This document shows positions 3,001 through 59,169 of a stretch of DNA of 59,169 bases, piece after piece. Location: contig JBEWZL010000263.1 in assembly GCA_045837725.1 (NCBI GenBank), positions 248,001 through 307,169 of the forward strand, in the 5' to 3' direction. A model generated the notes under the pieces. It made no database searches. It was not told the origin of the DNA and saw only the letters and a program-made list of their open reading frames with translations. Each line of letters opens with the position of its first letter. The stretch's first letter is position 1. A program made the position numbers and the translations under genes. Origin of the DNA: Vermamoeba vermiformis. Lineage: Eukaryota.

Positions 3001-5430
3001 GTACGTTTGGGGTCCGAACGAATTGTAGTAGCTCGTTTGATTCCCCGCTGGTACTTCAACCGTGTGCGGCGGATACTGTTGCGAGGAAGTACGCAGCGTA
3101 GCATTGCTTTGACTGGGATTGACACTCACTCGCAATGAGTTTGGCGAGGTCGAGTGCGGTTGCAAATTTGGCTGTGAACTGAACGTAAATTGTGGCTGTG
3201 AGTATTGTCCCTGTTGTTGGTAAGACTGTGAGGGATACTGCGCTGGTTGTTGCGTGGAGTATTGCGCTTGGTTTGAGTGGGAGTACGGTGCTGGCTGCGT
3301 TTGAAACGAGTGATTGTACTGTGCTTGTAGACTTGGCTGCGAGGAAGAGTACTGCCCTTGTTGCGTTTGGCTTGTATAACCAGTCCCATAAGTCGGTTGA
3401 GTAGCAGACATCGAGGGCTGACTTGGGGCGAACTGATTGGCGTACTGCTGGACCATTCTGCGATACTGATCTTGATAATTATGGTACGGTAAGTTTGTGT
3501 TTGTGGTTGTGGTTTGAGCTGAAGGCATGTGCTGCGTGGCATTGTGTGAGACAACAGGCACTGCGTGTGGCACTGAAGGCTGTTGCATTGACGGTGAAAT
3601 TGCTCGCTGCGGGGGTGCTGGAGAAGTGGAAGGCGAAGGTGATAAAGCCCGTGCTTGTGGTTGTGGTTGCGATAACGCATGTCGAGCTGGCACTGATTGA
3701 GGAGCTTGCGGCTGTGTTGTTTGTGACGAGGTAGTGACAGCGTGGCCAGTGCCAGAAGATCGCTTCAAAATTGGTGGTGAAGGCATATTGGGACGCTTTG
3801 CAGCATTGGGAGATTTCTTGGCATCTGTCGAGGTTTTGATGTTTGGGGTGCCACTGAGAGTTGAAAGTGTGACCTCTGGAAATACAGTTGGAAGGGACGT
3901 GTGCAGTGGTACTCGCACGGCTGGTGAGGTGGTTCCTTTTGGCGTAGGTGTCGGGGCTCGTTGTGGTGGCGCAGGGGCGGGTTTGTTTGTTGTACTGGTT
4001 GTGCTCGTTGTGCTCATTGCGCTCGTTGTGCTCACTTTGCTTGTTGTGTTAGTCGGTGCAGTCGCTGTAGTGGTGGCTGTGGCGGTGGTTGGAAAAGATC
4101 CACGCAGTGGTACTCGAGCGGCAGGTGAGGTGGCTCCTTTTGGTGGCGTAGGTGATGGAGCTCGTTGTGGCACAGGAACGGGTTTGTTTGTAGTACTAGT
4201 CGTGCTCACTGTATTCGAACTGGCTGTGTTCACTCTGTTTGCTGTGGTCGGTAGGGTCAGTGTAGTGGTCGCTGCGGCGGTGATGGGTTTTGGCGCAATT
4301 GGGGTAATTGGCTTGGTCGCGGTACTCTGCAGGCCCGCAGTCAGCGTCGCCTTTTTCTGCTCAAGTGCCTTTTGAACGACAGCAAGAGCAGTGACTGTGT
4401 CTTGCAATCTGAACGCGATGCCATTGACTTTAGGGTCTACTTTCGGTGGGGCTGGATTAGCACTCGTATTGCCAGTGCCCAATTGCGAGACTGGTTTCTG
4501 CGTAGGCAGCCCTAGTTGCGTATTTTGTGCCTGTGGCTGAGCGTTGTTCGAAGGCAAGACAGTGGGCCCGGGGTGCGCGACGATAATGCCTTGTTGAGTG
4601 ATTGCAAAGCGATAGCTTTGCTTGGGACTGCTTGGTACTCTCGCCACGACATTGGCAGGGACTGGAATGCCTGCTGTGTTCGTCGCATTTGGAGGCAACA
4701 CTACGGGCTGAATTGCTATCCTATGCAGAAGAGTTAGTCGACTGGATCGTACTGGCGGATGGACTTACTTGGGTGGCGCTGGTGTAGGTTGTTTAGGTGC
4801 AATGGTAATGGGCGGTTTATTCGTGCTGGTAGCAGGTGTTGGGGCCTTGTTAGGAGTATTTGGGTTATTGGGTAAGGCTGGACTCGCTAGATGCTTCGTG
4901 CTAATGCGAGGGCTTTCGGTGGCTGCAGTGGTTGTAGTTGAATTACTCTTGGTAGATGAGTAATTACTACCGCCATTATTATTATTATTACTGACAGATT
5001 TGTTCGCGTTTACGTCAGTTTGTGATCCGGAATCTAGTACACGGCATTAGCAACTAAGTAATATGCTTTAAAATATTTTACCATCAGCTGCACTGAAAAA
5101 TGAAGAAAACCATTCATTGGCTTGCTCTAAATTATTTTTCGGGGATTTTCTTGGGTGTTCGATCTCAGATGTATCTCGCTCTCCACTTCCAAGAGTGTCG
5201 CTTATTTTTCTCTTTTTACTAAATATTATTTAGTAATTAATATCGTATTATTGAGCTATTCTAATTTAGTTAAAGCCAGATCGACTACTTTGCAGACAAA
5301 AATTCTGTTCTTGCTTGACTGAAAGTAGTAATTATTACCTATTAGCGCTTGGCTCTTCTATGTCTATTGCAAATTCATTCTCGTCTTCAAATCCTTCGTT
5401 CAGATCGATCACTTCGTCGTCGTTGGACAT
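1..5430 (-). CDS. Large multi-exon low-complexity (T/S/P/Q/N-rich) protein with a C-proximal SAM-like domain; runs off the left edge
   Basis: ATG at 5430 (MSNDDEVIDL...). GT-AG introns join it to ORFs 2098-4701 and 842-2101, with a frame break near 2072-2167. Exons near 130-380 give LPADMLNFFRGLNMEHYYHDFQRNGITSLYAL..QITREQMETI, a SAM-like pattern. Confidence 0.7.
3880..4215 (-). repeat. Internal ~40-aa duplication in the low-complexity protein
   Basis: STTSTTNKPVPVPQRAPSPTPPKGATSPAARVPLRGSFPT versus STTSTTNKPAPAPPQRAPTPTPKGTTSPAVRVPLHTSLPT. Confidence 0.85.
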
Positions 5431-5602
5431 TGCTTCGTCTTCATTGCAAAGTCAAATAATATCCACAAAAATTTATTTATAGTATGCTCGTCATGCGCAT
5501 GATTAACTTAAATTTAATAAATAATTTTTTTTTGGCGGCAACACGTTTTGTATCAGATCGTTTTGTAAGATCGCAAAAGACTTCCGACAAAGACCGTCGC
5601 GT

Positions 5603-8127
5603 TTATTGCTGCGTAACAAACGTCGAAACAGTTACATGATCACTGTGCTTCAAAGCTTCTTTCAAATGCTTCGCGCACGTAAATATCAAGCCAAGGTTAA
5701 ATGCCAAAAACGCAGCGTTAAAATGTTCGTTTGCGATGTTTTGTGGTTCAGTTCTAAATAAGGAAATTAATAAATTTAATAAATTAATCAGTCAATCTTT
5801 TTGAATCGTAATCTAGTTTTCCGTGACTTACTCTGCCTCGGCCTTTTGACACGCTTGCAAATAGTGATAAGAGTACTATGATAATCAAGTCAGTTAATAG
5901 TGCTATTGTTTATATATACATATCATTTTTCTTACCGATGCCTCAGTGCCCATCTCGCCAGGGTTGCAATTTTCTATTTTTGAAATTGTATTCGAAAATG
6001 ATTCCTCACGCTCCGCGTACGTGCTCAATAATAATACAGGACCTATAATATGATTATAAGACATCGTAACAACCATATGCTTCGACTTACTATCTTCCAT
6101 AATGGTGTTAATGTTCTCCAAAGCTTTTTGCAAATTTCCTAATTTCATGAAACAAAACGCCAGATCCAACCGAAGTGTGAACCTACAACGATAAATGAGA
6201 TACTATAGCTACGACGCGATAAATATATCACTATTTAGGAGTACCTAAGGTTCGCTGATTGCACGCCTTGAGGGCACAAATGCAAGGCCTCTTCTAAATT
6301 ATTTACAGCTTCGTCTAATATAGACTTTTTGGTGCCCTAATAAACCATTAATAAGCCGCTGTTCAAATAAGGCAAATTATTATAACGTACCTGTACTAAC
6401 AAAATTCTTCCGCTTCTTCTCAACGCGCCAATCAAATTGTTTTTGCACGCGTTGACGTCGAATATTGAAGGTCTGTTCATCGATTTATCGCCAATTTCTA
6501 ATGAATTATGAATGCTCAACGCCTAAAGAATGAATTAGCAATTGGTCTAAGAGTGTTGTTCGAGTGACCTCGTACCTTTCTGTATTGTTTTGTAGCTTCA
6601 ATATAATCCTCGTTATTGAAGTAAATGTTGCCTTTCAACATGTGCGAATAAGGTTCGTGCGGGTACATTTCAATGGCCTCGTCGATGGTCTTCAACGCGT
6701 CTTCGATTTGACCTACGCAGGCAACAACGTCATTAATATGCATGTCTAAATGCTATTCATAATGACATTCGTACCTTCTTTGCTCGAGATGTTAGCCATG
6801 TTATAATACGCGACTAGATTTTGTGGCTCAATTTTCTTTAATCGCCTGAATTAAAAAGTTAGTCCAGGTTTGCTAACAACGACTAGCGAGGACTTACTTC
6901 GATAAGAAATACGCCTTTTGAAGCATTTCCGATCGGTCGGCTGGTTCGTCTTGCGCGTCAGCGACCTCCATCAAAATTGCCGCACAATTCCTAAAAAGGA
7001 AAAACTATTAGATCCGCACATTGCTTTCGGTACCATATTCTGACTTACATTAAACTAGGCGTATGATTAACATTGATATTCAGTGCATTGAAGTAATATT
7101 TCAGTGCTCGTGCCGTGTTCTTCTTTTCAACGTCGTACAAATAAGCCAAGTGATAGTGGGCCAAAAAATTCTCGTCTCTGTAGTCGCATTTAATTGCCTC
7201 TTTTAGCAGTTGAATTGCTTCTGACACACGTGATTTTAGCTTAGCGCCTATAATCACTAGTATTAATATAAAACTTTGGTAAAATTGTGCACGCGCGACT
7301 TGCCTTTTCTTTTGTAATAAATGATCGTCGCCAAATTGGTCAAACAAACTGTGTTATTGCTATATTTGGCAGTTAGTACTGTACAAAGAAATTTTCGCAA
7401 AGAATAAATGTACCTCGAGGCCTGCAACGCCTTCTTATAATAGGCCTTGGCAGTGACGCTGTCATGGAGTTCGTATTCGTAGTAAATGCCTTTGTGCAGC
7501 AAATACTCGCTCGTGGCCAGTAATTGACACAGCTGTGCCACTTGCGCACAATCACGTGCTTGTCCGTTCATGAACAGATTGTACGCGTATTCGACTTGAG
7601 CACCCAAATCTCCGGGCTTAGTTGCTGCTCGTGCGCGAGCAATTGATAAATTCTTTTCAACATTTGCCAAGTGATTCTAAGAAAACATTAGCACAATAAT
7701 AATACTTGTAGATAAAAAAAAATTCTATACCGGATCCTCCTTTGCGAGTGTCTCATTGATGGCTTTGATTTGCTTCGCGTTATCTTCGAGCTGTATATTG
7801 TCATTAGTAACATAACTACTCTCAACGGTTTGAAATGGATCTAATTTGAAAAGTCAACGAAAAATTTGATGAACTCACCGAAGCGGATGCAGTTGACAAA
7901 ATGCGCGTTAATGCCCGGATTGAGATCCATTTAGCCACTAAGTCCGCTTGAGCTTCTTCATAAGCGTTAAATAAGGTCTCCTTGTCTAAAAGTAATCGCA
8001 GGATCTCAAACACGAGCTGATATTGATTGTCTTGACTTTCTGATGCTTTTAAATTTTCCATTAACTTTGTAATATTGCTGATCTTGTTTGGTGGCAAGCC
8101 AATGAATTTATGTTCGAGTTTCTTGGT
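5603..8127 (-). CDS. Tetratricopeptide-repeat (TPR) protein, multi-exon; may be the 3' part of the upstream F-box gene
   Basis: TPR-like exons such as AKAYYKKALQ, AHYHLAYLYDVEKKNTARALKYYFNAL, SHMLKGNIYFNNEDYIEATKQYRK and LAFCFMKLGNLQKALE. The last exon ends ...FVTQQ*, TAA at 5603-5605. Confidence 0.75.
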
Positions 8128-8292
8128 CTGAAAAAATTAATTAATATTTCGGTATTTTGAATGAGCTTGTATGGCCTAAAAAAAGCCAGACAAAGATTAA
8201 ATATTGTATTTATATAGATAATAATATTTTTGAAAAATATTTCAATGGATTTGGAGTTAGTATTTTGAACGATCTTGAGTTGATGGTTGGAT

Positions 8293-9756
8293 CTAGCTGT
8301 TAAGGGTACATTTACTTACAGATAGCGCACGTTGAAATAAACTACTTTTAGTTCCATTCTTTTTGCTGAGATCTGCTTCTACTCCAGCCACGATCGAAGA
8401 TCTCATTATTGAGGTGCCTCGATCTCTAATTAGTTTTGACGACGCTGACCTAACCGCTAGTCGAAGCATCGTGTTGAGGTACAGGACAAATAAATAGATG
8501 GACAAAAAGGTTTCTTTGGCCACTTGTTTTTTTGGCAGATCGCAAAAATTTACTTTTGGTCAAACGAGGTTAGATAGGAACACAATTACTACTATAATAA
8601 ATATCCCTCTTGCTCGTTTAAAGCTTTCAGGTCCGTTCACGTCCGCACTAGTGAAGAGATCAAACAAGAATAAGATCAGCGTTGCAATTAAAAATAGAGT
8701 CTGCAGAGGCGCCAAATAAAAAATCCACGGGGCCATATAGCACACTGCTAATATCAATCTGATGCCTTTGTGGCGTATTACTTTACACAGAGCAAATACG
8801 ATGAGACCAAATCCAACCATGACGAGTTGATGAGCCACGGGACCGATCGATAATAGAATTAATAGCGCGATCGATCCTAATCGTGCTAATATACTTCCAT
8901 TACGGCAAGTGAAATTTCCAAGAATTGTGTTGGTAATAAGTTGATGCTTGTTCTGAAAAATGTTCCAAAGGACCACGGCTTCAAGTCCCATAATAAATAC
9001 TGCATTGTGTTTTCCGACGTAGTCGCTGCCTTAATTTGACTGACTAGTGCATCGGGTCTGAACAGCAACCCATCCAAAAATGGCAAAAACGATAGCAAGA
9101 TCTAGACACAAAATTAATTCAGTGTTGTTATCAATCTATCGGACCAATATAATATCAGTTAATAGAATATTAATATTATAATATATTCGCCAAGTTCTTA
9201 CGAAAAGGACAACGAGTAGCTCCGAAATACGAGTTCTGTTTTTCAGATCCGCGCTTCTGGTTGCTTTTTTTATGTATCGCCAAATTATGAATGGATATAA
9301 CCACACGGGATATATTAATATGGTCTTAATAAACTTCCACAAAGTTTCAGGTCTCTGCGCTAAATTATGATTTAGCCAAGGAACGTAAAGCTGATCGACT
9401 TTGTATCGCTGTGAATTGTTTGAAAATCTCGTTAAAGTGTGGTTAATAGTCGACATATTCATCGGTAAAGAGCGTCTAATAACCAAAAAATAAGCTATCT
9501 TTGGAGAAAAGAGCTCATCCGCTCCAAATAAGTCGAGCTTGTTTGGCCAGCCTTCAATTTCCTCGTATATATCCGGATAATTTTGTTTGATTTTAAATGC
9601 TAGTCGCTCTTTCAACCATGAAGGGTGCTGGGATATAATCTTGTGCCAGTATTTGCTCGTCAATGACAAATTCAATAGCTCCTCGTCTTTGAAATTCATT
9701 GGGTCAAAAAATTGTTGCATAATTTCGAGTTGCATATCTAACGGCAAATAACTCAT
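8293..9756 (-). CDS. F-box protein with downstream hydrophobic/transmembrane region
   Basis: N-terminal LPLDMQLEIMQQFF...LLNLSLTSKYWHKIISQHPSW is an F-box pattern. Downstream ORFs 8293-9098 are hydrophobic; internal splicing is uncertain. Confidence 0.7.
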
Positions 9757-10102
9757 AGTACTCTGACTGCCAACAAATAAAATTTAATCATAATAATTAA
9801 AAAATAAAGCGGTAATTTTACGGTGAATAAATCAATTATGCTTATAAATTATAGAATATTGATTTATAAATTAATTAAGTACCTTTCTTTGGGTAGGTGG
9901 TTATTCCTTCGCATTATTGAAAGCGCCGCATATGCGCTGATAAGCAGGGCAGTACTGCTCGTTAGCGGCAATTTATGTAATATAAACATCAGACTTGTAC
10001 ATACAAACATTTAATTAGAACAGTTCCGAAATTTTTTTTCCATGCAAAAATCCTTCTGAAGTTGTTACCGTTACAGTCTATTTTGTCAACATTAATTATG
10101 TT

Positions 10103-10642
10103 ATGAACACAACACAATCTACCGAATCAAGTGCCTCGAAACCCTCTCCTGAGGTCGTTGCCCGGCTGCTGGAGATAGCGCAAGAGATCGACAAAGTAAA
10201 AGAAAAATTAAACGAAGCAAAAGCAAACCTTGAAGCATGTTTTTATGCGCAAAAGAAAATCCCAAATGTATCGGAGAGTACTCGCATCAAGGTGAACAAG
10301 CTGATTTACCACATCGAAGATAAAATCGACGATATCTGCGCAGAAATTAGAGCTCTTCAAAAAATAGTAGCTATTGATGGTATTATATTTTTATATTCTT
10401 GATTGTTCTCGCGCTATGCAAAATTTCTTCAGAGATTCGCAAAAACGCGTTTTTCAATAATTTACGATTGTTAGTACATAGAGCTGTTACCCAGAGAGCG
10501 TACGAAGTCAATGCTCCGTTGGTTGCTGGTAAAATCTTGCTTAGAATGGGACGTTCTACTACATCTCCCCAATAACGAAGAAGAAATTATTGAACTATTT
10601 TGGAAAGAGAGAAGGTCAAAAAAAGGAGTTAATTATAATTAA
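10103..10642 (+). CDS. Hypothetical coiled-coil protein, 2 exons
   Basis: ORF from 10103, a phase-1 GT-AG intron at ~10380-10481, then a second exon ELLPRERTK...GVNYN*. Confidence 0.6.
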
Positions 10643-10740
10643 ATAATTGTGTTTGATCTCCAATGCAATATATACGCTGCGGATAAGTTTCTAATCGATT
10701 TTATTCGCTGCTTACAAAGGCTGCAAATGAGATACAAAAT

Positions 10741-13700
10741 TTAAATTCTTGTAAATCCCGCCGCATAGGCCTCAGCCCAAGCGTATTGTAATTTTTCGAG
10801 AATTACTTGCTTGTCGCCATAATCGGGCAAATATAAGGTCCAAAAACACGTGCTACTCATCGGCAAGGCCTGAATATTATCAAACTTCGTAATGTTGATC
10901 TTCTTGTTCATCTTTGTAGGCAATGTATTTAATCCAGTGATATAATGTACGAATTTTCTCTTTTGTTCCGCGTCAAATTCTTGAATCAGATCCAAAACCT
11001 CATTTGGTGTCTTCGAATCACTGTCAAATCTGCTGAATTCAATAGCCGCTATTAACTGCTTGGTATCTATAGTCTCTCGTCCGCATATTAATAGTCTTAA
11101 TAAACTTTCATCGCAGTTCATGACCATTTTGTAGTTGTAACTAGAGTCAAAAAATCCATCGCGGATCGAATCCAAAGCTTCGACTCTAGAGCCAATCAAT
11201 GTATATCTAACCTTCCTATTAACATAATCACTCTTATTCTCGTTCGTGACGTATTCTGCGTGATCGGATCCGTCTTCGAAGTCCCAATCAATCGTTGTTG
11301 AATTGACCGGCAAATCAATATGCAATACAGACGACACTCCGTTGAATAAATCTTCGTCAAAATTCTTCAAATCTGCTAAGCTAAATTCTGCTTCGACTCC
11401 TTTCTTCAAATATCTGAAGAAAAAGTTCGGAAATTGAACACCGATCGGGATCCGATCCACAATGGCCACTCGAAACATTATTCTTCCAATGGTATAATAT
11501 ATCTTCTTCTCTTCGTCCGATAAGCTCTGTTCGATATCTTTCATCGCTTTAGGCAAGTACGGTGCGTGGTTATAACTCTCAAATAAATTCTTGTCGCTCT
11601 CCATCAATTCCTTGAAAAACAATGAATATGCATCTGACTTCAATCCACCGGCATCAACACCGTCTTCTCCGATAAATGATATCACTAGTGGTGCTAATAT
11701 TTGTGCCGAAGACATGGTGAAGAATAGCTGTACCAAATAATCGACGATGTTTTTCCGAACGATCGAGACAGTTTGAGTCTTGCCTTCGACTTCCAAATAA
11801 GGAAAAAACTCTGCAAAGATATCTAAAGTCAGAGCTCTTGTGTATCCCAATAGCATAGTTGACAGTGTGTCGTTTTGGAATATCCGCAAAGCCATCTGAG
11901 CCATCAAGATTGGGGTACCTGACTGCGAGTCAATCGTCGGATCTGCTCCGTGCTCGAGCAACAAATCTCCAACCTCTTTCCACAATGGATGACTGGCATC
12001 AGTAGCAACAGATGTAGGGCAAAAGAATCGATCTGCCACGAGCTTCAACGGAGTCAAGCCTCGTGCTGTAGGATCGATGTTGGGATTAGCGCCATAAGTC
12101 AGCAGTGCCCGTACTATTTGGACGTGAGTGTTAGAAACAGCGTGGTGCAGGCACGACACTCTGTTGAAAGTTGTGTTCGGATCGACGCCAAGGGACAAGA
12201 GCTTGTTGACTGAGGCGTAGAGACCCGACTCGGAGAAGAAAACTATCGCTGGCTTGTCATTGATCACGAGGTCGGCGGGCAGTAAATTCTCTTCAGCCAA
12301 AACTTCGAATAACTGCCACTTCTCGGCGGTAATGATCGCTGAACATAGCCGTGGCGCGTCGCTGAATGAGACAGCGTTCGTTCTGACCAACTCTCGCATG
12401 ATCACTTCAAATGCTCTAGCACTGCCTTGATGAATGGCAATGTCTATGGGCAAGTGTCCATTAGCATCTTTCACGTTCAGTGAAACTCCTTCATGAACGG
12501 CAAAAGTCATCACTTTCTTAGAGTTCATTGTACTCGCCACGTGCGCCAAGTTTCTATTATTCATGAACGGCGTCGAGTCATTCGTGAATGCACAAGTCTT
12601 GTAGAACTGAATGAATAAGTCCATCATCTCTTCTTCGGAGTGTCGTGCTGCCACGTCAATTGACAGCAATCCATCTGCGTTTCGGTGATCACGTTGAATA
12701 GATTTGACGTGCGTGTCTAAGAGTGCCAGTACTTGTTTCAAATAGATCGGATTATTACTCAGCCAGGCCGTGTGATACAAAGTGTTGCCGTTGTTGTCAA
12801 TGTTATTCGTGCTGTCATATTGAATGATTTCCTCGGCCAAGTCCACGTAACCCATCTTCACAGCGAGGTGCAGTGGTGTTAGTCCATTCATATCTTTCAT
12901 TTGCATCAACTTCTTAGCCCGTTCTTCATCGAGCCTAATCACTGACTTGATCAACTCTACTCCTCGTCCACGGGCATTAATTATGTAATGCAATATATTC
13001 TCTTGCGTCTTCTTGTCAATGTCAATATCGATAGGCAGTCCTTCTTTTATAAGGAGCGGTACTAACTGGTCTAACTGCACGTCCAATGCGTATCTTAGCG
13101 CGGAATGTCCGTTATAATCAACAGCAGTTAACAATTCTGGGAAATACGCGACAATCTTCAGCGCACATTCGAGTTGTACGTATTGCAATGCCACGTGTAA
13201 TATCGATGCACCGTCTAGTGTTCGAACGTCGAATGAAGCACCGAGCGAATCCAATTCTGTTAGTGCATCGAAATCTCCCAACGACGCAGCTAAATGCATG
13301 GCCGATAGCGAATTACTGTCCAATCTATTGATGTAGCTATTTAGAGCAAGTTTATCGTTGTTATTAATCTCGTTGAATAGGTCGATCAATTCCTTCATGG
13401 ATCCGCTCTTCTCTTTCACGATCAAATGCAACAGTCCTTCACCTTCACTGTTCTTGTCGTGCTGGAACTGATCTATTTTTAGCGCCTCTTTGAGTACATC
13501 ACGTGACGCGTTCTTTTGCAGGAAATAAGTCACGAGGGGCGGCAGACCTTGTTTGTTGCAAATTGAAAAGTCTAAAGAATTCGATTCGCACAACACGTGT
13601 AGCATTTGAACTGACTTGACGTAATGTGTCAAATGGTTGCCTAATTTGTCCACGAGTGGTCCGATCATTTCCTTTTTTGGCAATAAAGATCGTGCAACTT

Positions 13701-14266
13701 CAACTTGGTTCCAAATGACTGCCGTGTGCAAAATTGTTTGACCGTTCTTTGCGAGCCATTTGAATGCTTCGGGTATATTTTCGGAGAAATATTTGATGGC
13801 GTCAGCGCGGCCCAATTTGACGGCTAAATGCAGACAAGTCAAGCCTTGGATGTCTTCTTTGGGCACGAGATACTGCATGGACTTCAATTGTGCTAGCACG
13901 TGTAGTTGACTATTAGCACAAGCGCGGTGGGCGAGAGTGGATCCATTCGCGTCAATTTTAATCGCTAATTGAGAATTCGATTTCAGATCGTTTATGATCT
14001 GTTGTTCTGCGACTGGAATCACGACTGGACGAGTCCACTTTCGACCAGTAGGCGTCTAATAATTTTATATTAATATTGGCATTATCAAAGCATCAACTCT
14101 ATAGAGCGTGAAAAGCAAGAAATATAATTATGAAATCCGTCAATGAAAAATATTCAGAATTTTTAAATACCTTATCTTGATTAACATGCGCTTTGTCATT
14201 TGTAGAATTACCGAATTTTGAAATTAAATTGGCTACAGAGCCTCTGCTTGATTCGTCGCGCTCCAT
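10741..14266 (-). CDS. Ankyrin-repeat + HECT E3 ubiquitin ligase (HACE1-like architecture)
   Basis: Many ankyrin motifs (GLTPLHLA, GQTILHTA). HECT motifs FIGEDGVDAGGL and FVHYITG, with the catalytic Cys in LPMSSTCFWTLYLPDY. A short first exon (ATG 14266) splices to a ~3.3-kb exon. Confidence 0.93.
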
Positions 14267-14609
14267 TTAGATCTTGTCAGTCTTGTGTAGGGTTCCACGG
14301 TCTTCTCACACGAAGAATAAAATTAACCGTCGTATATGGACTGACTATGGCAGGTTTCTCTCGCGAGATTGAAATTTCTAAATCGTGAATACTGAATTGT
14401 CAGTAATCCGTCAGATCTTCACTCAATACAAGGTTTTACCATTAATCCATTCTCTTTACGTGCTTCTATGATAATTACACAGAATAAAATTGTTCTGACT
14501 GAAATTTTTTGGCGATTTCTGACTTGAAATCACGATTTCAGCCGTTATGAACGCACTACGAGTGGTGATCTCCAAACGATTTTTCTCCACATCAAAACGA
14601 TTATTTAAA

Positions 14610-16348
14610 ATGGAATCTAAGAGATCTGTTCGCGTATTGTATCACGTAAGCTAATTTTTATGCAAAGTCGATACTCGTAGCGTGTATTAATTTTTTAAAA
14701 TTAAGTGCCCTTGCCCTGATGGTGCATATGCTATGTTAGCTGCATATTTGCGATTTAAAAATGAACCTAATACTGGTAATATTTATTTTGATTTTTTTTT
14801 CATATTATTTTTTCTGATTAAATTCGCATAATTCATCTAGAAGTCAAATACGTCCCGCATATGACCTACAAGGCCTTGGAAGTGAAAAATAATCCTTTAT
14901 TCACAAAAGAAAGTGAAATCTATTTGTAAGTCAGATTTGGATCCGCTCTTCCTCACTTGATTATGCTAATGAGCCATTCATTCAGAGTTGATTACATCGG
15001 CCCCGAAAATTTCATCACGGAATTGTCGCCATTGGTCAAAAAGATCACCGTGCTCGATCATCACAAGACCGGCTTAGAATTGGTCGACAAACTCAAAGCT
15101 GAAAACAAAATGCCTGAAAACGGTACTATATTCATATGCGCTATAATCAATCCTATAACGGGCATAATTTTATAATATCTTAATAACCCTCAGTGTTTTG
15201 AAATCGGATCGGATCTGGTTAAGTTAACTAATTCTCTTTTTATTATAGTCGAGGCTCATTATACTATGGAGAAATCAGGTGCTACAATTTCATGGGACTA
15301 TTTTTCAGCTCAAAAGCGATTGATCGAAGATGACGCTACTCTCAAGTACGATAACATGAGTCTGACTTTTTATTTGAGTGTTTGCAAGAATTAATTTATT
15401 TCCTTATTTAGACAAGCTGAAAGATTCTACAGTTACATCGAAGATAACGATTTGTGGCGCAAATCATTGCCGTTCACGAACGAATTTTCAAGGTACAGAT
15501 CTAGATCGCATCGAGATTTGATTATACATCCTAAGCACAACCATATTATATTATTATATGTTATCATTAATATTAATTATCATTTGCGAATGAATTTAAT
15601 GACATACGAACCTCGTCGCAAATTTTTTATTAGCAGTTGTTAATTTTTTTTTATTTGCAGCGGCCTGAGAGAACGAAATTTAGCCTTTGATTGCGACAAA
15701 AATCCAAATATTTACGCAGAATTGCAATACTACGATGTTGATGCGTTGATTGAAACCGGCAAAAAAGTTTTGGAAGAAGAACAGCGTGTTATTTCACTCA
15801 TTCTTGACACTGCTTTTACTGTACGTCCTATCATTATATTTATTATTAATATGCTCATAATTAACCTGAAAAAAATGATTAGATTAAATTGGGGGGCAAA
15901 GACAATGATTACGGCGAATGTTTGGCGGTCACTACTTCACGCGCTGATTTACGCAGTCAAATGGTACGAAACAACTTATCTTTCCTTATTTGGTAATGAG
16001 ACTGACGAGTGGTAATAGGGCAATGAGTTGGCGATTAAAAGTCAGAAAGCTGGATTGCGCGGCATTGGTGCAATTGTCTACACTGAAAATGATATGCACG
16101 ACAAGACTAAATACAAAGGTATTATTATTTCCTGTTAAAAATCCCGAGCTAATTATCTGTCGTAGTGAGCTTGAGATCGATTAAGGATGAAGATACTACT
16201 CCTATTTCAACCGCTTACGGTGGTGGAGGTAAGATCCAGATCTGAATATCTACTTAAGCGTACTGACCCTTTTATTGCAGGTCATAAGAACGCCAGTTCG
16301 TTTTCAGTTTCGATTGATGAATTCAACACTTGGAGAAAGACTAACTGA
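14610..16348 (+). CDS. DHH/DHHA1-family phosphoesterase (nanoRNase-like), multi-exon
   Basis: Spliced motifs VLYH|CPCPDG, VLDHHK, KSGATISWDYF, YIEDNDLWRK and YGGG|GHKNAS. Confidence 0.85.
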
Positions 16349-16491
16349 AGTTCGAACAAGTGAATGATTGGTAGTAAAAGTGAACTTGAAACTTTTTGAT
16401 CGCGCACTATTTAGTTCCGAGAAAAGCATTTGGCTTATGTAGACGTACCTTCTGAAAGTACATTTATTATATATTCTTTGTTGTCACAAGG

Positions 16492-18234
16492 CTATTTATA
16501 GACCAAATGCAACATGCTTTCCTCGTTAGGAACGCCAAGTCTGAGCGGGAAGCCATAATAACCCGTGCCTCTGTGCACGTAAATGCGCTTAGTGCCCTGT
16601 GCCCAATAACCTTGTTCAGCGACTTTGACGCCGAGCAGTCTCGGTACGCTGAATACTGTTGCATCAATGCCCCACGTCAAAAATCCTAATTGACCACCGT
16701 GCAAGTGTCCTGATAAGACAAGATCGGCCTAATAGCGTAGTGTTAAGTCAGCGGCACATAGCTAACGGATGGATCCGAGTTCAACTTACGTATCCTTCAG
16801 GGACAAATTTGAAGTGGAATGGATTGTGCAAGAGTAAGATCGTCGAAGCACAGTCTGTGCGACGCGGTTTGCTGCGAATGAATTGTTCCATCTTTGGCTT
16901 GACGTCGCGGAAGTGGAAGTCAGATCCGAGCACTTGGATTTTACCGAGGTCTTCAAGCACACTTAATACACAGTTGACTATATATCATGTGCTACTTACG
17001 TGTCTCGAGCACAAGTTCGTCGTCGATCAACAAAGGAATGTTCAATTGTTTCATTGCGTCAATGGTGTGAGAAATAGCTTCGTAGTCATGGTTCTGCGCC
17101 GAAATTTTCTTAGTAATCACTATTCAATAAAGAACCTATTTAGACTTACGCCCAAGCATGCGACGGTTTTGTATGCAAAAGGCTTGAGTGGTGACAATGC
17201 CTCCACGAGTGCACCGGTATGATGATGAGCCTTAAGGGTTGTGTTAGCGAATATATAAAGCAATTGTATTCGGGCCATAAATCGATCGTACCTGCATAGT
17301 AAAGAAATCTCCCGTCAAAAATATCAAGTCAGGCTGCTCTGCAACAATTTTCTCGCAAATTGAGCGAAGTCTATTTATCGGGTTGAAAGGTCCTAAATGC
17401 GGGTCTGTAACTTGACATATCTTCAAGACCGAGCAATTGTTGGCATTACTAGATTTATGAGGTGTCAGTCTAAGTCCAATTATACTATAATTGGGCTACG
17501 CGAATACTTACATAAGTGCCGGATCCGATGTAAACTTATAACCTTGCAATTGAATCAATTTCGAGCCCACATCCTTTCTATCAATTACAATGTGTCGTTT
17601 TTCGAATGGAGGTCTGTGCATGGAATGATAGAGACCAATAGCTGCTCGAGAGTTAGTTCATGAACCATTATTTCAGTGAACGAGGACGAAATGAAACTTT
17701 GTTGAAACTTACTCCAAATTACTGCTGAAACAACAAGTGTCCACTGAGGTGATACAGGGTACACTAGGCTTAATAATGAATATGCCACCCAGTGGAAGAA
17801 AACTACGGCAAAGAACCACGAGGATGGAATGTCAACGAGGATCCGCACAGGTGTTGGGTTTAATTTTCCTAAATTATTGAATATGTTAAAAATTATGATT
17901 AATATTCCTAAGTCAATAATATTGCGTATCGGCTTATTTAGATTATTTTGAATTTTTAATTTTAAAAAGTCTTACCTCTCGTGTATGTAATCATCATAGC
18001 AAAATAAGCGAATGAGAAATACATATATACCACTTCGAGAGCAAATGGATGTGGAAATGATCTGTAAAGGCTCTTCAACAGGGCAGTTTGGATGAGAATC
18101 ATAATGGTGGGAAATAGCAATGTCCTTAGCTTGCCGGTCTTTGAATCGTGACGCGCAGGACCAAGTGTTAAATTAAAAAGTGAATAGGCACAAACGAGTC
18201 CTATTTCAACGTATGCTAAGCTGTCTAACCACAT
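16492..18234 (-). CDS. Transmembrane metallophosphoesterase (TMPPE/YkuE-like)
   Basis: N-terminal hydrophobic exons, then calcineurin-like motifs DPHLG, LTGDFF, ACLG|NHDY, LLHNP, GHLHGGQ and HRGTG..PLRLG. Confidence 0.88.
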
Positions 18235-25200: not shown

Positions 25201-26795
25201 TCAGTTGATTTGCAGCCACCGACACCTGAAGGCTCGCGCATGAATTTTGACGAAGAATCGAGCACGGGAGGCAGTCCTGAAGGCAACAAATTTGATCAGT
25301 TTTTGAACGGAAATAACTCGCTGTACATTTTGAACGGAGAACCGGCCGGACACGAAGGTACGTCAAAAGACATTCGATATTACCTAATAAGGAAATAATT
25401 CATAGTTTGCGAATTGAGTTCTTCGAGTCAACTTCAGCGAATTATAAATTTGAATTTTGCCTAATAAGGAAAGCTAATTTTAATTTTGCAGTTGTAAACG
25501 ACACGGAACAGGCGCTTAATTTGTCGATCAAATTGATCTCGTGCATCATCAGCATTTACAAGAAACACTGCAAGACAGTGAACAGCACTAAAGAGTTCCA
25601 AGTGGCCTCCGATCTCATTCACCAAGATGAATTTTACCGCGCTTTTGTCACTGACAGCGCTCAACTGCATTCAGTACGTTACCCTCGCAACATTTCCTTA
25701 TTAGGTAATTGCCAAAGTTAACATCAACTCTTCTGTTTAGGTGACAGCAGTCGGCATGACAGAGCATCAAAAGATTGTGTTTTTTGTAAATATTTATCAC
25801 ACGCTCTTGTTGCACAGTTACGTGGAAATGGATTCCATTCCTGACAGCAACTTCAGCAAAGTGTCACACGCTCGATCCGTCGGTTATCAAATAGGTAAAA
25901 AACATTGACTAATAACATTATACTTACACGTTAGTTAATTCTTGTATTAGGTGGTTATGCTATTTCATTGTTATCCATTGAACATGAAATTTTACGAGCC
26001 TGTTCGCATCGACCTGCATTCTTTGGTACGAATTATAGTTAAAGCATATATATATATATATAGTATACTCTTTGGATGATAGTGCTAATAATGATTTATA
26101 AAATAATTGTTCGTAGGTTCGAGTTTCCTGATCTCAAAGTCCCCTCGTGGAGGAGCAGTTTCACAACTCTCGTTAACTCAACCTTATCCTCAGGTAAAGT
26201 CATAGTGCTGTATATTATATACTAGGTCCCAGTTATTAATATAAACACAATTCAGATCACGTTTTTGTTGTGCACATTGACGAAGAGCAGTCCGCCAGTG
26301 CGCGTGTTGACGATGGAAAATGTCGAGTCAATTCTGCACCACGCAGCGTACTCGTACATTTCTAAAGAGGTCCTGGTAGAGAAGAAAGTCGTAAGTAATT
26401 GTTATAGTTTATATGGTTACAACTCGTGAGTCACCGGTGATTTTGCGGATCCAGATCCGTGTCGTTCATTTATGTTAAGCTTGTCAGAGTTTATTATGGT
26501 ACTAATAATATGGTGTTAGATCACGTTGCCAAAGCTAGTTGATTGGTACAAAAAAGATTTTGGAAGTTCAACCTCGGCGGTGTTGAAATGGATCGCACTT
26601 TATTTGCCAACAGAACGCAAAAATCAATTTACACAACTATTACACACGAATTCATATCGAATTGCATTCAAATCATATGAATTTGGATTCAAATTCGAGA
26701 CTGATTCGCCGGATCAAGCGGCACTGGAGCTCGCGTCAAATCATCACAGAACAAGTCTCATTGTCCAAGTTGGGGACGGGCCAGTGATAAAATAG
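22211..26795 (+). CDS. Multi-exon protein with VPS9 (Rab5 GEF) domain and C-terminal DUF547-like domain
   Basis: VPS9: GADDFLPLVTYIMIQANIPYIYSELEFI...GYLLVSVQAA. DUF547-like: KIVFFVNIYHTLLLH, IGGYAISLLSIEHEILR, SSPPVRVL and LPKLVDWYKKDFG. Confidence 0.85.
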
Positions 26796-55100: not shown

Positions 55101-55743
55101 AGCGCGAGAGTGCTACAGGCATCAGCACGGGCGCTTATTACCTCGGCAAGTCAATATCGCACCTGTTCACGATTTTCACGGCCCCAGCTGTGTTCTTGTT
55201 CGCTTTCACTTCGCTTGCTGGTAAGTCTCTGACGCGCACAATTTGCGATGTTAACCGGTTTATTGACAGTCGTGGAGGGCAATTATTGGGAGCACTACCT
55301 CTTATTCGTTGCCGCGTACTTCGTGTCAGCAGGCATTGCGTACGCTGTCTCCGTGCTGACTCCGCCAAACTTGGCTCAACTTGTTGGTATCCTTGTCTTG
55401 CTTGCCTCTATGATGTACTCTGGGTACGTGATTCATAATTCCATATTTTGTTGATCAACATTTGCTCATTGTCCGGAATAGTGCGAGTCCCACTCTCAAC
55501 CAATTAGAACACAACAAGATTATGCCGAATGTGTTGCAATATCCCGCTCATGGTTCCTTCTTGCGCTGGGCTCAAGAGTTATATTACTTGATTGAAATCA
55601 AAATGTACCGATTTGGTGTTCAGAGCATGCATGCCATTTACTCTTACAGCTTGGATGATTGGGTTCTCTGTTGGTTGTGGATGGCTACTCTGGCTATTTT
55701 GTTCAGATTGATTGCTTATATTGCTCTTGTAAGACGGGAATAA
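52181..55743 (+). CDS. ABCG half transporter with N-terminal TM anchor and extra TM segments between NBD and TMD
   Basis: [48 protein letters not shown] and [11 protein letters not shown] motif [18 protein letters not shown]. Confidence 0.93.
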
Positions 55744-56374
55744 ATCTGTTGCCAGTCAATGTGGTTGTTTCTTCATTCATCAGCAATTGCTCTGTCAAAG
55801 GCCTTGATTCAACTACTCTATTAGCACCACTGATGCAAGCAGGGCCTGAGCCATTGCAAGAATAATGGACCATTGCCAATCAACAGAAGAATTTAGTACT
55901 ATTGAAGATTACCATCCAATTGAGCTCTGCCTCAACTTAGTGCACATGTAGGGCAAGCCTCTGTTTAAGCCACCAGGTGTGGATTGGCAAACAGAGCCTT
56001 TTCTTATTGGAAATGGCAGTTCAAGTCACACATTTCCATTAACTATTTGCAGTCCAATGGTATTGATCTGTTAGATTTAAAGTGAGTGTAATAAAATTGG
56101 GGCATCTTCATTTTTTGAAACTTTATCATCAACTTCAGACAAATATCTATTTTATTGATATATCCTGGAGAGAGCAATGGAGAAATTGACAATCCTGATG
56201 GCATTAAACAGGACAGCTAATCATACTCGTACCAGACTGCTTTAATTTTTCTTAAACAAAAAAAGTGAAATTGTGTATAAGATTACAATACAGCTAAATA
56301 CAAATAAAAGACAGCATTTCATGGTGGATTGTAGCTTGTACACTTAGTTTACAAGATCAGGTTACTTCCATGCC

Positions 56375-56833
56375 TTGCTGGTTAGAACATGTGCATCTCT
56401 CTTCAACCATAGTCTTTTTACTTCTTGTAAGTTTACCCACCATCAAAAAAATAAACTCCTTTGTGAAGATTGCATTAAAGCAAACAAGAAGGCAAACAAT
56501 CAAAATTACAATGAGAAAAAATATAAAGTTGTAGAGATGGAAAGGGAATTGATGTGTGCACAAAAACAATGTTTGTTACCTATTTCCAAATTCTTCACCA
56601 AGAAAGGCTCCAAATATTATTGCCTTCAATGCACCAAACATTCAAAACATATGCAGGTACACTACTGCCTGTTTGACATTGATGGAGCAGAAAAAATCAT
56701 TCAAAAGATTTGCAGCACCTCACTAGACCAAACTGGAGATTCAAATCCTACATATAGTGAAGATATTAAAACAAGTGCCCCACAGCAGCCCCTAAAAGAC
56801 AAAAGAAAGCACAAAGGCAGTGAAGAGGGGTAA
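56375..56833 (+). pseudogene. Cys/His-rich putative zinc-binding ORF, probably decayed
   Basis: CEDC, CAQKQCLLPISKF and YYCLQC motifs; no CpG within the ORF. Confidence 0.3.
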
Positions 56834-57297
56834 AACAAAAAAACAGAAGAAACCCCAAATGCAACTGTCTAAAGCTCAACCCTTGTGTGGTCAAACTGCG
56901 CTCAACCAGTCACAATTCCAGACCGTGCGTTTGAGAAACCATCGATTCTCGTAATTAGAACCAACCGTAATGTACTTCCAGGCATGATTATATATATAGT
57001 TAGGCTTAGCTAATTTAAGGCTTATAGGCCTAAAGCCTGGAAAATGTCATATTTTTGAATAAACGTTATTTATTTTTGAATATACAATTATGCCTTAAAT
57101 CAGTACTATCTTTGTTTTCCCAATTTTGAATCACAAACATTGTTTTCCCATCCATTTGCCTTGGCAGGTTTACGATGAAGACTGAGCCTAAAGTTAAGGA
57201 ACTTAGTTTCATCGGGTAACTATTTTGAATATGCATACTTACAAAATGTCTATTCATTTGTATGCACGTCCAACCAGTAGAGTGCAGAATTCTCAAT

Positions 57298-58020
57298 CAA
57301 CCGTAGTCCAAGGACTACAGTCAAATGCAGAATTCCTGACTGAGCGTAGTCCAAGGACTACGGTCAAATGCAGAATTCTCGACTAACCGTAGTCCAAGGA
57401 CTACGCTCAAATACAGAATTCTTGACATACCTGAAAACGGGCAAAGCAGCTTAAATTGTCTCTATGACCTGTAGAAGGGTATATAAGTAATTTTGAATAT
57501 ACATTAATTAAAAGTGTATATTCAAAAGTTTGTAAAGATAACGTGACCGTAGACCAAGGACTACGGTCAAATGCAGAATTCCCAACTGAGTGTAGTCCAA
57601 GGACTACGGTCAAATCAAGAATTCTCAACTAACCGTAGTCCAAGGACTACGCTCAAATGCAGAATTCCTGACAACTGGTCAGGGTTATACTGTATACTTC
57701 GAGCATAGTCCGAGGACTACGGTCAAATGCAGAATTCTCAACTAACCGTAGTCCAAGGACTACGCTCAAATGCAGAATTCATGACATACTTGAACAGGGA
57801 GAAACTGCCCAAAGTTATAACAGGTGACCTGAGAAAGGGAACGTAAGTTATTTTGCATATACATTAATCTAATTTGTCTATTCAAAAGTTTGAAAAGCTG
57901 ATGAAACAACCGTAGTCCAAGGACTACGCTCAAATTCAGAATTCTCAACTGAGCGTAGTCCAAGGACTACGGTCAAATGCAGAATTCCTGACTGAGCGTA
58001 GTCCAAGGACTACGGTCAAA
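57298..58020. repeat. Array of 11 palindromic 43-bp units (core CGTAGTCC-AA-GGACTACG, then TCAAATGCAGAATTC) in clusters of 3+3+2+3
   Basis: Cores start at 57302, 57345, 57388, 57548, 57591, 57634, 57704, 57747, 57911, 57954 and 57997. Confidence 0.97.
57491..57527. repeat. AT-rich 13-bp inverted repeat with 11-nt loop; degenerate copies at 57223-57259 and 57851-57887
   Basis: TTTTGAATATACA-N11-TGTATATTCAAAA. Confidence 0.9.
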
Positions 58021-59169
58021 GATTCACACCTATAACCCTGAAGACTTGCATAACCCTAACAGTGCAGAATAAGTCCAAACCATCCAATATAGCCATTGCA
58101 TATTACTTGTATGCTATAGTAAGGTAGATTAGCATCAGAGTGACAAAATAAAGAATTGAATTTGAATATTTAAAAAAAAATAATAACTATTTATTTTCGT
58201 GGGTCCGCATTTGATTACTTACTGCTGCAATGAAAGGAAGCCATGCAAATACAGGTGTTCTTATATATTATATAGTGGTGTTGTTGGCAAGTTGAATGTA
58301 ACAGAAAATGAACAAAAAAATCTTTTTTTGGTCAAGCACGTGATCGATGCTCGTCAAAATCTGACCAATGCACGCACTGCCAACCTCCTAATACATGTCT
58401 CAAGGGGCACATCAGTAGTGTGCTACTATTCAAATATGTCAGAGGTCAAGGAGAGGGCCCATTGGTGAGGATCCGATGGTCAGCCGATGTTGGATCGAGA
58501 TCAGGATTTGCCAATTTCAGGCTGGTGGCTTCCAGTAAAGTAAGTAATCCAAGAATATTAATATAAATATTAACTACACTATGTGGTTAAACTGGTGGCA
58601 TAATCTGCTACTATATAATAAAATAAATATTTATTAAAATCAAATCTAGCCGTTACCAAAAACTTTACAACTTTTTGGTAACAGTTTGAGCCAGTAAGTA
58701 TCAATTCATAGTGACAATAATATGAGTATTATGGTAAAATTAATGTCATATTTCTAGGATAAATAGTAAGTGAGATTTTCCCAATCCAGAGGCTCGTGCA
58801 CGATCCAGGATCAATCAGTGTGGAGCTTCAGTGACTGCTGGTAAGTGTAAAAACACACTCAAATAATTAATTACAGTGCTCTAATACTAGTTGTCAGGTC
58901 AACAGAAGGCAGCAAGAGCTGGTTAAGCAGATCCAGAAAAGTCGAAGCTGTATTTTTTGAATATACAAATAAATATTTTGAATATTCATTTTTGTACAAA
59001 CAAATTTAGTGTCTGTATGAGTGATAGTTGGTATATATATCTTTCTACATTGGTCGCAGGTGGTTTTTGTTGAAGTTTGTGGGATTGATATGTCCCCATA
59101 TTGAAAATGTTTGATGTCCTGGATTGCAGAATGCTGAGGTTCTCTCTGCCTTTGATAACCCTGCAAAGG

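Follow-up and report, generated by a model that had tools for sequence, protein, structure and literature searches.

Several described systems come close to the locus reported here. HINE/DINE-1 transposons, which are non-autonomous Helentrons, are described as carrying subterminal inverted repeats (subTIRs) of 11–15 bp, an inverted repeat complementary to the 5′ subTIR 3–22 bp away, a microsatellite, central repeats and a 3′ stem-loop 8–35 bp from the end, with a TT target and, in those accounts, no target-site duplication (TSD) (PMC4067079, PMC7492417). The clam miniature inverted-repeat transposable element (MITE) DTC84/pearl, from a mollusc host, contains up to five core repeats whose variants follow a fixed order, each with a palindrome, and is described with an AA TSD and a microsatellite (PMC3879986). 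In the foldback transposon Tetris, internal tandem repeats seed satellite-like arrays (the TIR-220 satellite), and many rearranged modular forms are described (PMC4079207). Two further systems are viral or plasmid-borne: the homologous regions (hrs) of baculoviruses consist of repeated units, each with an imperfect palindrome (PMC4535591), and at the F-plasmid site sopC the protein SopB binds a 16-bp inverted repeat that is present in each of 12 direct repeats of 43 bp (PMC3177203). Here we analysed an array of palindromic 43-bp units near the right end of a 59,169-nucleotide stretch of Vermamoeba vermiformis DNA (hereafter, the window), which an earlier note, made from the sequence alone, had interpreted as a protein-binding, replication or recombination element of a mobile or viral element, or a source of hairpin RNAs.

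The palindromic array and its copies

The array consists of 11 units of 43 bp, each with the 16-nt palindrome GTAGTCC-AA-GGACTAC (7-nt arms, AA centre). When the core GTAGTCCAAGGACTAC was searched on the + strand with up to two mismatches, 11 matches were found, all within 57303-58013 and none elsewhere in the 59,169 bases. Only 0.21 were expected, and none of 100 shuffled sequences contained as many, confirming the earlier count of 11 hairpin units with a 43-bp period within clusters. The core was exact in 9 of the 11 units and the 18-mer CGTAGTCCAAGGACTACG (core plus flanking C and G) in 7; all cores were best matched on the + strand and none was inverted. Start-to-start spacings of 43, 43, 160, 43, 43, 70, 43, 164, 43 and 43 nt separate the clusters by 160, 70 and 164 nt and leave 43 nt between units within them. 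Tandem Repeats Finder (TRF) accordingly reported three period-43 arrays (57283-57426, 57546-57668 and 57911-58020; 83-92% matches). The EcoRI-type sequence GAATTC, said in the earlier note to follow all units but the last, was present after 10 of the 11 units and once more before unit 1, and 11 of the 24 GAATTC sites in the window fall within 57287-57987.

The majority consensus in a 43-nt register starting 5 nt before the core, TGACCGTAGTCCAAGGACTACGGTCAAATGCAGAATTCTTGAC, combines 12-nt palindromic arms, centred on AA, with a 17-nt spacer after them, and variation among units is concentrated at positions 1, 2, 4, 23, 30 and 39-41. The conservation of the spacer AAATGCAGAATTC equals that of the hairpin core, and the arms of single hairpins contain uncompensated substitutions: unit 4 carries T>A, unit 7 carries G>A, and in unit 1 another G>A stands at position 22. 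Because the spacer is as conserved as the hairpin, and the arm changes are uncompensated, the array looks like the product of recent amplification or homogenisation rather than of selection on each hairpin.

To place the array among its copies, four runs were aligned to positions 55500-59169 (3,670 bases): DNA contigs from the same organism (X1), a water metagenome (X3) and two RNA-seq runs (X21 and X23). In X1, the unique flank 55718-57013 was represented by one 1296-nt contig with no differences at a depth of 291.6, and nine bins across 55869-56975 stood at exactly this value. From 56976 to the window end, summed contig depth, which is not a copy number, was 1264-17880, with 3356-17880 over the array; the repeat part thus reached 4-61 times the unique summed depth, in hundreds of variant contigs with different flanks. 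Of 444 contigs placed, 251 were at least 99% alike, 142 were 95-99% alike and 51 were 90-95% alike, and 117 fitted two places. Right of the array, single contigs differed from the window (15 differences over 381 nt), and their depth was 4-5 times that of unique DNA. The foreign flanks of other copies differed from one another; two were checked and both were absent from the window, which contains no second copy of the repeat block. Variant copies were also enriched in the water metagenome, which contains a relative, at a depth of 46-64 versus 0.6-3.3 on the unique part, itself present there with differences. Among the metagenome copies, one was longer by about two units (joint 57990>57906), another had 58992 linked to 57488 at the border motif described below, and a third departed from the module head at 57524 into sequence that looks genic.

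All DNA from about 56.98 kb rightwards to the end of the window, the array included, exists in many variant copies in the genome as a non-coding dispersed repeat family. The earlier note's proposal of a mobile or at least dispersed repeat was upheld to this extent, and the single-locus minisatellite that it had named as the refuting case was removed. A minisatellite without wider distribution would agree with the failure to find another copy in the 59-kb window, the JGI metagenome, IMG/VR or the prokaryote collections, but it is contradicted by the hundreds of X1 variant contigs with foreign flanks, by the summed depth and by the copies in a second, environmental run; we regard it as practically eliminated.

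The clusters sit in three head-to-tail modules of 268-360 bp (57222-57489, 57490-57849 and 57850-~58020), which align at 78% over 404 columns. Each is laid out as a head palindrome, a short lead, 2-5 copies of the 43-bp repeat in a fixed variant order (x-A-B, in terms of the unit types described below) and a tail of ~65 nt that is common to modules 1 and 2; module 3 stops abruptly at 58020, beside the inverted copy TATAACCCTG. A 73-nt block recurs at 360-nt spacing with 81% identity, and clusters 1 and 2a, which have the x-A-B order in common, are 92% identical over 128 nt. The module start is a second palindrome, composed of a 13-14-nt motif (TTTTGAATATACA), 11 nt and an inverted copy; head palindrome 2, folded as DNA, gave -9.4 kcal/mol (z -5.65). 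Inverted pairs of this motif bound the modules at 57243/57490, 57515/57850 and 57875/58954. All eight exact copies of TTTTGAATA in the window lie within 57053-58984, where 1.85 were expected, and none of 100 shuffles reached eight. Neither this second palindrome nor the ~360-bp higher-order unit nor the repeat-rich DNA from 56.98 kb to the window end had appeared in the earlier note.

The ends at which contigs of other copies break away from the locus follow this anatomy. The 12 loose contig ends listed, of 34, were all at module borders. Among those listed, 57236, 57242, 57505, 57524 and 58975 were inside the TTTTGAATAT motif or at most 8 nt from its edge, 57386 and 57994 were the first base of a unit (57994 in two runs), 57421 and 57425 were just past the last GAATTC of a cluster (57425 in two runs), and 57264 was 8 nt after a head. 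We read these joints as arrays and flanks that may recombine like cassettes, as in non-autonomous DNA transposons with central tandem repeats. With moderate confidence, we favour the interpretation that the array is one locus of an interspersed non-coding family whose module is such a transposon; its mobility, its superfamily and any enzyme-binding or hairpin-signal role of its palindromes are matters that we infer. In such an element, the 13-14-nt motifs would be putative (sub)terminal inverted repeats, the enzyme recognising them would come from a gene elsewhere in the genome, and the 43-bp palindromic units would be cargo. Slippage or unequal exchange, favoured by the nested palindromes, would add or remove a single unit or a single A-B pair at a time, and the local higher-order array would stem from tandem duplication of entire modules. 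The three modules are placed at the edge of a larger repeat-rich block.

Several observations weigh against a transposon. X1 is possibly the window's own source sample. No TSD was visible around any module: 57515-57863, for example, is flanked by ..AAAAG and TTAAT.., and the module flanks differ, with ..TTAATTAAAAG before and TTAATCTAATT.. after. A microsatellite like that in the left flanks of DINE-1/HINE was not found, since TRF at a score of at least 30 returned only the 43-bp arrays in 57222-58110, and searches of the JGI metagenome, IMG/VR and prokaryote collections recovered no related locus. Only 1.1 kb of the window follows the array, so that a position in a subtelomeric or pericentromeric repeat block is possible. 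Finally, the spacer between successive modules is always 11 nt, indicating that the local modules arose by tandem duplication of one block and not by three separate insertions. This constancy fits a satellite-like higher-order repeat equally well, and because of it a non-mobile, satellite-like dispersed repeat stays a real rival.

Such a satellite, dispersed or segmentally duplicated and with higher-order structure, would have spread by unequal exchange, ectopic recombination or segmental duplication, for instance within a subtelomeric or pericentromeric block. Besides the constant spacer and the lack of a visible TSD, it is favoured by the ~360-bp period, by the repetition of the entire 2.2 kb up to the window end, with depth in layers and the window stopping within repeats, and by telomere-like ATAACCC(T) motifs at 58031-58060; motifs of the ATAACCC type also occur in the flanks of other genomic copies, at loose contig ends. 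However, the arrays here are short (2-3 units per cluster), the window contains no run of telomere repeats, and other copies join arrays or heads to unrelated sequence exactly at module borders, including the genic-looking sequence in X3, which is the pattern of cassette-like mobile modules. We regard a satellite as unlikely, while giving it more weight than any other alternative to the transposon.

Mirror-image units and their pairing

The two mirror-image unit types reported in the earlier note proved to be real. Type A units have the form TGAGC..GGTCA (TGAGT in unit 5 and CGAGC in unit 7) and type B units the form TAACC..GCTCA (CAACC in unit 9). The types are distinguished by positions 4 and 23, which are partners in the local hairpin (Table 1). 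Units 1 and 4, left unclassified before, are hybrids with C at position 4 and G at position 23, and the 12-nt arm extensions of unit 4 are perfect; the G/C state was found in none of the 11 units. Unit 7 has a GA loop and the other 10 units an AA loop. Since this AA centre keeps its orientation throughout, B is more than an inverted A. The A/B difference breaks the local hairpin in 9 of 11 units, and in all three adjacent A-then-B pairs (2-3, 5-6 and 7-8) the left arm of A, TGAGC, pairs perfectly with the right arm of B, GCTCA, with GAATTC as the centre of symmetry of the pair. Consistent with this, A alone folded at -8.8 kcal/mol with one mismatch and B alone kept only the 7-bp core (-5.4 kcal/mol), and the preferred fold of a 144-nt cluster was a long hairpin of A with B, whichever strand was folded (-32 and -33.6 kcal/mol, z ~-7.5).

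These relations constrain how the two types could have arisen. An identical C>G change on one or the other strand of a perfect, consensus-like palindrome would yield A or B. Because the A/B changes lie at mirrored positions and pair between neighbours, they point to an inverted duplication of long ago, with core and spacer homogenised in direct orientation afterwards, or to templated (quasi-palindrome) mutation in which one unit served as template for the next. Selection might also have acted on the long A-B hairpin, as single-stranded DNA or as RNA. The mirrored variants bear on the evolution of quasi-palindromes, for which templated mutation, inverted duplication with conversion, and long-hairpin selection can all be considered.

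The same pairing lends itself to functional readings of the units. It is doubtful, in our view, that the 43-bp units are either reiterated hairpins serving recognition in a mobile element of the rolling-circle (Helentron-like) or another single-strand-handling kind, in a eukaryotic lineage that is sparsely sampled, or a chromosomal protein-binding array of sopC-like geometry. In the former case, A-B mirror pairs may have been retained since their long hairpin, in single-stranded DNA, would be the enzyme's substrate; in the latter, an array with a 43-bp period and a 16-bp inverted repeat, as in sopC, may be used, for example, at centromeres or chromosome ends. No Rep, helicase or endonuclease gene that could be an autonomous partner was found within the window.

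A broader version of the protein-binding idea, in which an origin, enhancer or partition-type site serves the cell or an integrated episome or virus, would place dimers of one protein on 16-26-bp palindromes every 43 bp, ~four helical turns apart. Its form is near that of sopC and the baculovirus hrs, and the palindrome core is exact in most units. Nevertheless, the non-palindromic spacer is conserved as well as the palindrome, many variant copies with different flanks are unexpected for a single origin or centromere, and no partition, Rep or viral gene lies nearby; no parA/parB-type open reading frame (ORF) was found among the window ORFs examined, and none for a transposase, integrase, Rep or capsid in the part of the element inside the window. 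Sequence searches were equally negative. The 18-mer had no match in IMG/VR and three single matches in JGI metagenome contigs, in unrelated GC-rich sequence, which we read as chance; two cores 27 nt apart had no match in prokaryote genomes, and plasmid and phage blastn gave none. A literature search found no paper containing the 16-mer palindrome, and among work on 43-bp repeats it found only sopC and human loci and no eukaryotic family of this kind. We consider a protein-binding array of this sort very unlikely. A viral hr-type or iteron-type origin, with whose layout the earlier note had compared the array, was not borne out, given the cellular genes of the window, the missing viral, phage or plasmid match and the lack of replication or capsid ORFs. 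The earlier interpretation is thus partly supported, as a dispersed and probably mobile family that is neither viral nor an origin.

A source of hairpin RNA appears likewise very unlikely, and it is compatible with the transposon interpretation. Transcripts would fold as single hairpins of 7-12 bp or as ~34-bp A-B hairpins and would feed a small-RNA pathway that silences the family. The long folding of A-B pairs on either strand, and the fact that the diagnostic A/B differences preserve this pairing, are in its favour. Rfam assigned no family at the gathering score and, at E<=1, gave only six sub-threshold miRNA-type matches; these likenesses to miRNA precursors (19-27 bits versus gathering scores of 60-195) could be counted in support, but they are far under threshold, as any hairpin would give. 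No RNA run containing the locus was found, and RNA-seq runs with the same species label contributed two reads (X21) and one read (X23), partly on 55500-59169 and 90-95% alike. Since the neighbouring genes at 55500-56975 were also nearly unread, without RNA reads except in one X21 bin (56730-56852, mean depth 0.17), these runs are uninformative on expression of the array.

Feature coordinates and genomic setting

Table 1. Features of the repeat-rich block and of the 43-bp units (positions in the window; units numbered from left to right)
Feature	Positions or units	Strand	Details
Left part of repeat-rich block	56985..57221	+	two direct TTTTGAATA motifs, 57053 and 57074
Repeat/unique DNA boundary	about 56985-57013		1296-nt contig ends; next bin summed depth 16586
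Head palindrome 1, degenerate	57222..57256	+	ATTTTGAATATGCA, 11 nt, TGTCTATTCATTTG
Cluster 1	57298..57426	+	units 1-3 (C/G hybrid, A, B), 43 nt each
Tail 1	57427..57489	+	common with tail 2 (alignment)
Head palindrome 2	57490..57528	+	ATTTTGAATATACA, 11 nt, TGTATATTCAAAAGT; 57491-57527 self-inverted, 85%
Cluster 2a	57544..57672	+	units 4-6 (perfect-arm palindrome with one core change, A, B)
Insert of 27 nt breaking the 43-nt register, module 2	57673..57699	+	contains CAGGGTTATA
Cluster 2b	57700..57785	+	units 7-8 (A, B)
Tail 2	57786..57849	+	alignment with tail 1
Head palindrome 3	57850..57888	+	ATTTTGCATATACA, 11 nt, TGTCTATTCAAAAG; repeat block 81% to 57465-57537
Cluster 3	57907..58020	+	units 9-11 (B, A, A); unit 11 ends after GGTCAAAG
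TATAACCCTGA	58031..58041	-	exact inverted copy of 57679-57689
Lower-copy repeated non-coding DNA	58042..59169	.	contigs of depth 1262-1510 versus 291.6 unique
Core starts	57303, 57346, 57389 / 57549, 57592, 57635 / 57705, 57748 / 57912, 57955, 57998	+	
Type A	units 2, 5, 7, 10, 11		position 4/23 = G/G
Type B	units 3, 6, 8, 9		position 4/23 = C/C
Hybrid	units 1, 4		position 4/23 = C/G

The earlier note had also linked 57679-57689 and 58031-58041 by an 11-bp inverted repeat. The repeat is indeed exact, but it does not exceed chance: the search with a 10-mer and at most one mismatch gave five matches against 2.33 expected, and 9 of 100 shuffles had as many, so that the pair, taken alone, is within chance. 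A third copy of the motif, with one mismatch, lies at 59154-59163. The CAGGGTTATA pair was considered as hAT-like termini and rejected, as it has no flanking 8-bp duplication and does not exceed chance. Right of the array, two direct copies of the TTTTGAATAT motif form a doublet at 58954-58988 in the lower-copy repeat, which also contains, at 58652-58682, a 31-nt palindrome (GTTACCAAAAA..TTTTTGGTAAC) that is 84% self-complementary. Elsewhere, at 26647-26694, a 21-bp tandem repeat (two copies, 86%) includes GAATTC-type palindromic pieces; its sequence is unrelated to the 43-bp family.

Judged by its gene content, the window is eukaryotic nuclear DNA with ordinary cellular genes. These include a HACE1-like ankyrin+HECT ORF, an F-box gene, three GSDH-type genes, an AlkB-like oxygenase, an ABC-2 membrane part, an ABCC transporter split into exon-like ORFs and a weak, sub-cutoff CRAL/TRIO match. 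The last long ORF (56348-56833, +) lies upstream of the array. Those found within 56900-59169 are short and have no family match; Pfam returned nothing below E 0.04 for six ORFs of 66-93 aa in the repeat block, and no tRNA was found in the repeat region.

Several other features of the window were recorded. On the minus strand, 842-4764 holds two low-complexity ORFs of 440 and 888 aa in which N, Q, T, S and P are abundant; they have no Pfam match and are probably one gene. The ankyrin+HECT ORF (10741-14055, minus) is uninterrupted over 1104 aa, its HACE1-like family being named by protein-atlas look-up. Of 8000 candidates scored in a homology search with its HECT part, only two proteins (98% and 84% identity) reached E<=1e-20, which suggests a thinly sampled lineage. 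The GSDH (glucose/sorbosone dehydrogenase) paralogues, two to three in tandem, occupy 30263-38841 on the minus strand, with domains at 32226-32936 and 38362-38841 (Pfam E 9e-38 and 1e-30); they have in common a C-terminal module without family assignment, and 30803-31330 and 33779-34306 read alike. At the 3′ end of the ABC-2-type transporter gene (55500-55745), X1 contig depth was 835 and 711 versus 291.6 (2-3 times), which hints at a paralogue elsewhere in the genome. One contig of the water-metagenome relative was without 56162-56426 (265 bases; joint 56161>56427) and had 10 other letters instead; this skip, upstream of the ORF at 56348-56833, could be an insertion, deletion or intron difference.

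Annotation should mask the window's final 2.2 kb as repeat, with no search for genes or regulatory sites there. Tandem repeats inside interspersed modules are a route by which satellites are thought to arise from transposons, and the family provides a clean example, from a poorly sampled microbial eukaryote, of tandem repeats inside small interspersed modules.

Comparison with described repeat families

On the accounts cited above, the HINE/DINE-1 transposons are among the closest described layouts. The 13-14-nt inverted motif lies at module borders, where other copies break off, and an inverted copy stands at a distance of 11 nt in two of the heads (57490-57528 and 57850-57888), with a degenerate one in the head at 57222-57256. 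Roughly half of the module consists of central tandem repeats, with two or three 43-bp units in each cluster, and palindromes able to form stem-loops, the lack of a visible TSD at this locus and the modular recombination of flanks and arrays are further likenesses. Many stem-loops fold in the array region. Unlike HINE/DINE-1 as described, the family has no left-flank microsatellite, its termini, the 3′ end included, and its TT target are at most putative, its repeats are themselves nested palindromes, and its modules stand in tandem with a fixed 11-nt spacer.

With DTC84, as it is described, the family has in common a short non-coding body, ordered palindromic repeat variants, variable copy number and cassette-like flanks, but it differs in having no AA TSD, no microsatellite and no sequence similarity to it (PMC3879986). 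Like a classical MITE, the element is small, non-coding and present in many copies; inverted motifs are present, but the TSD that flanks the terminal inverted repeats (TIRs) of that class was not found, the two flanks being different. The internal tandem repeats of a non-autonomous element, the satellite-like arrays and the rearranged modular forms are likewise reported for Tetris, but foldback arrays, in the same account, are inverted in two long TIRs, and here 11 of 11 units have one orientation (PMC4079207). Because all units are in the + orientation and the AA loop is never inverted, a foldback element was excluded as the family. Classical satellite DNA forms tandem arrays that are long (kb to Mb) and homogeneous; the clusters at this locus are short.

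Among the viral and plasmid sites, the hrs of the baculovirus AcMNPV have an EcoRI-centred palindrome, and sites of this type are repeated around the genome of a large DNA virus. The array resembles baculovirus hrs, as far as these are described, in its direct-repeat clusters with imperfect palindromes and in the GAATTC at the symmetry centre, here that of an A-B pair. It differs in being cellular eukaryotic DNA without viral genes or sequence match, and a many-copy family with variable flanks. The likeness to sopC is one of arithmetic, about a dozen 43-bp direct repeats with a 16-bp inverted repeat in the account cited (PMC3177203); sopC, however, is a bacterial plasmid site beside sopAB and has no sequence similarity to the array. 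To judge from the sequences, the resemblance to the viral hrs and to the plasmid partition site is therefore one of form only. A transposon with internal tandem repeats is an ordinary kind of sequence, and most likely what we describe is a new family of a kind already known.

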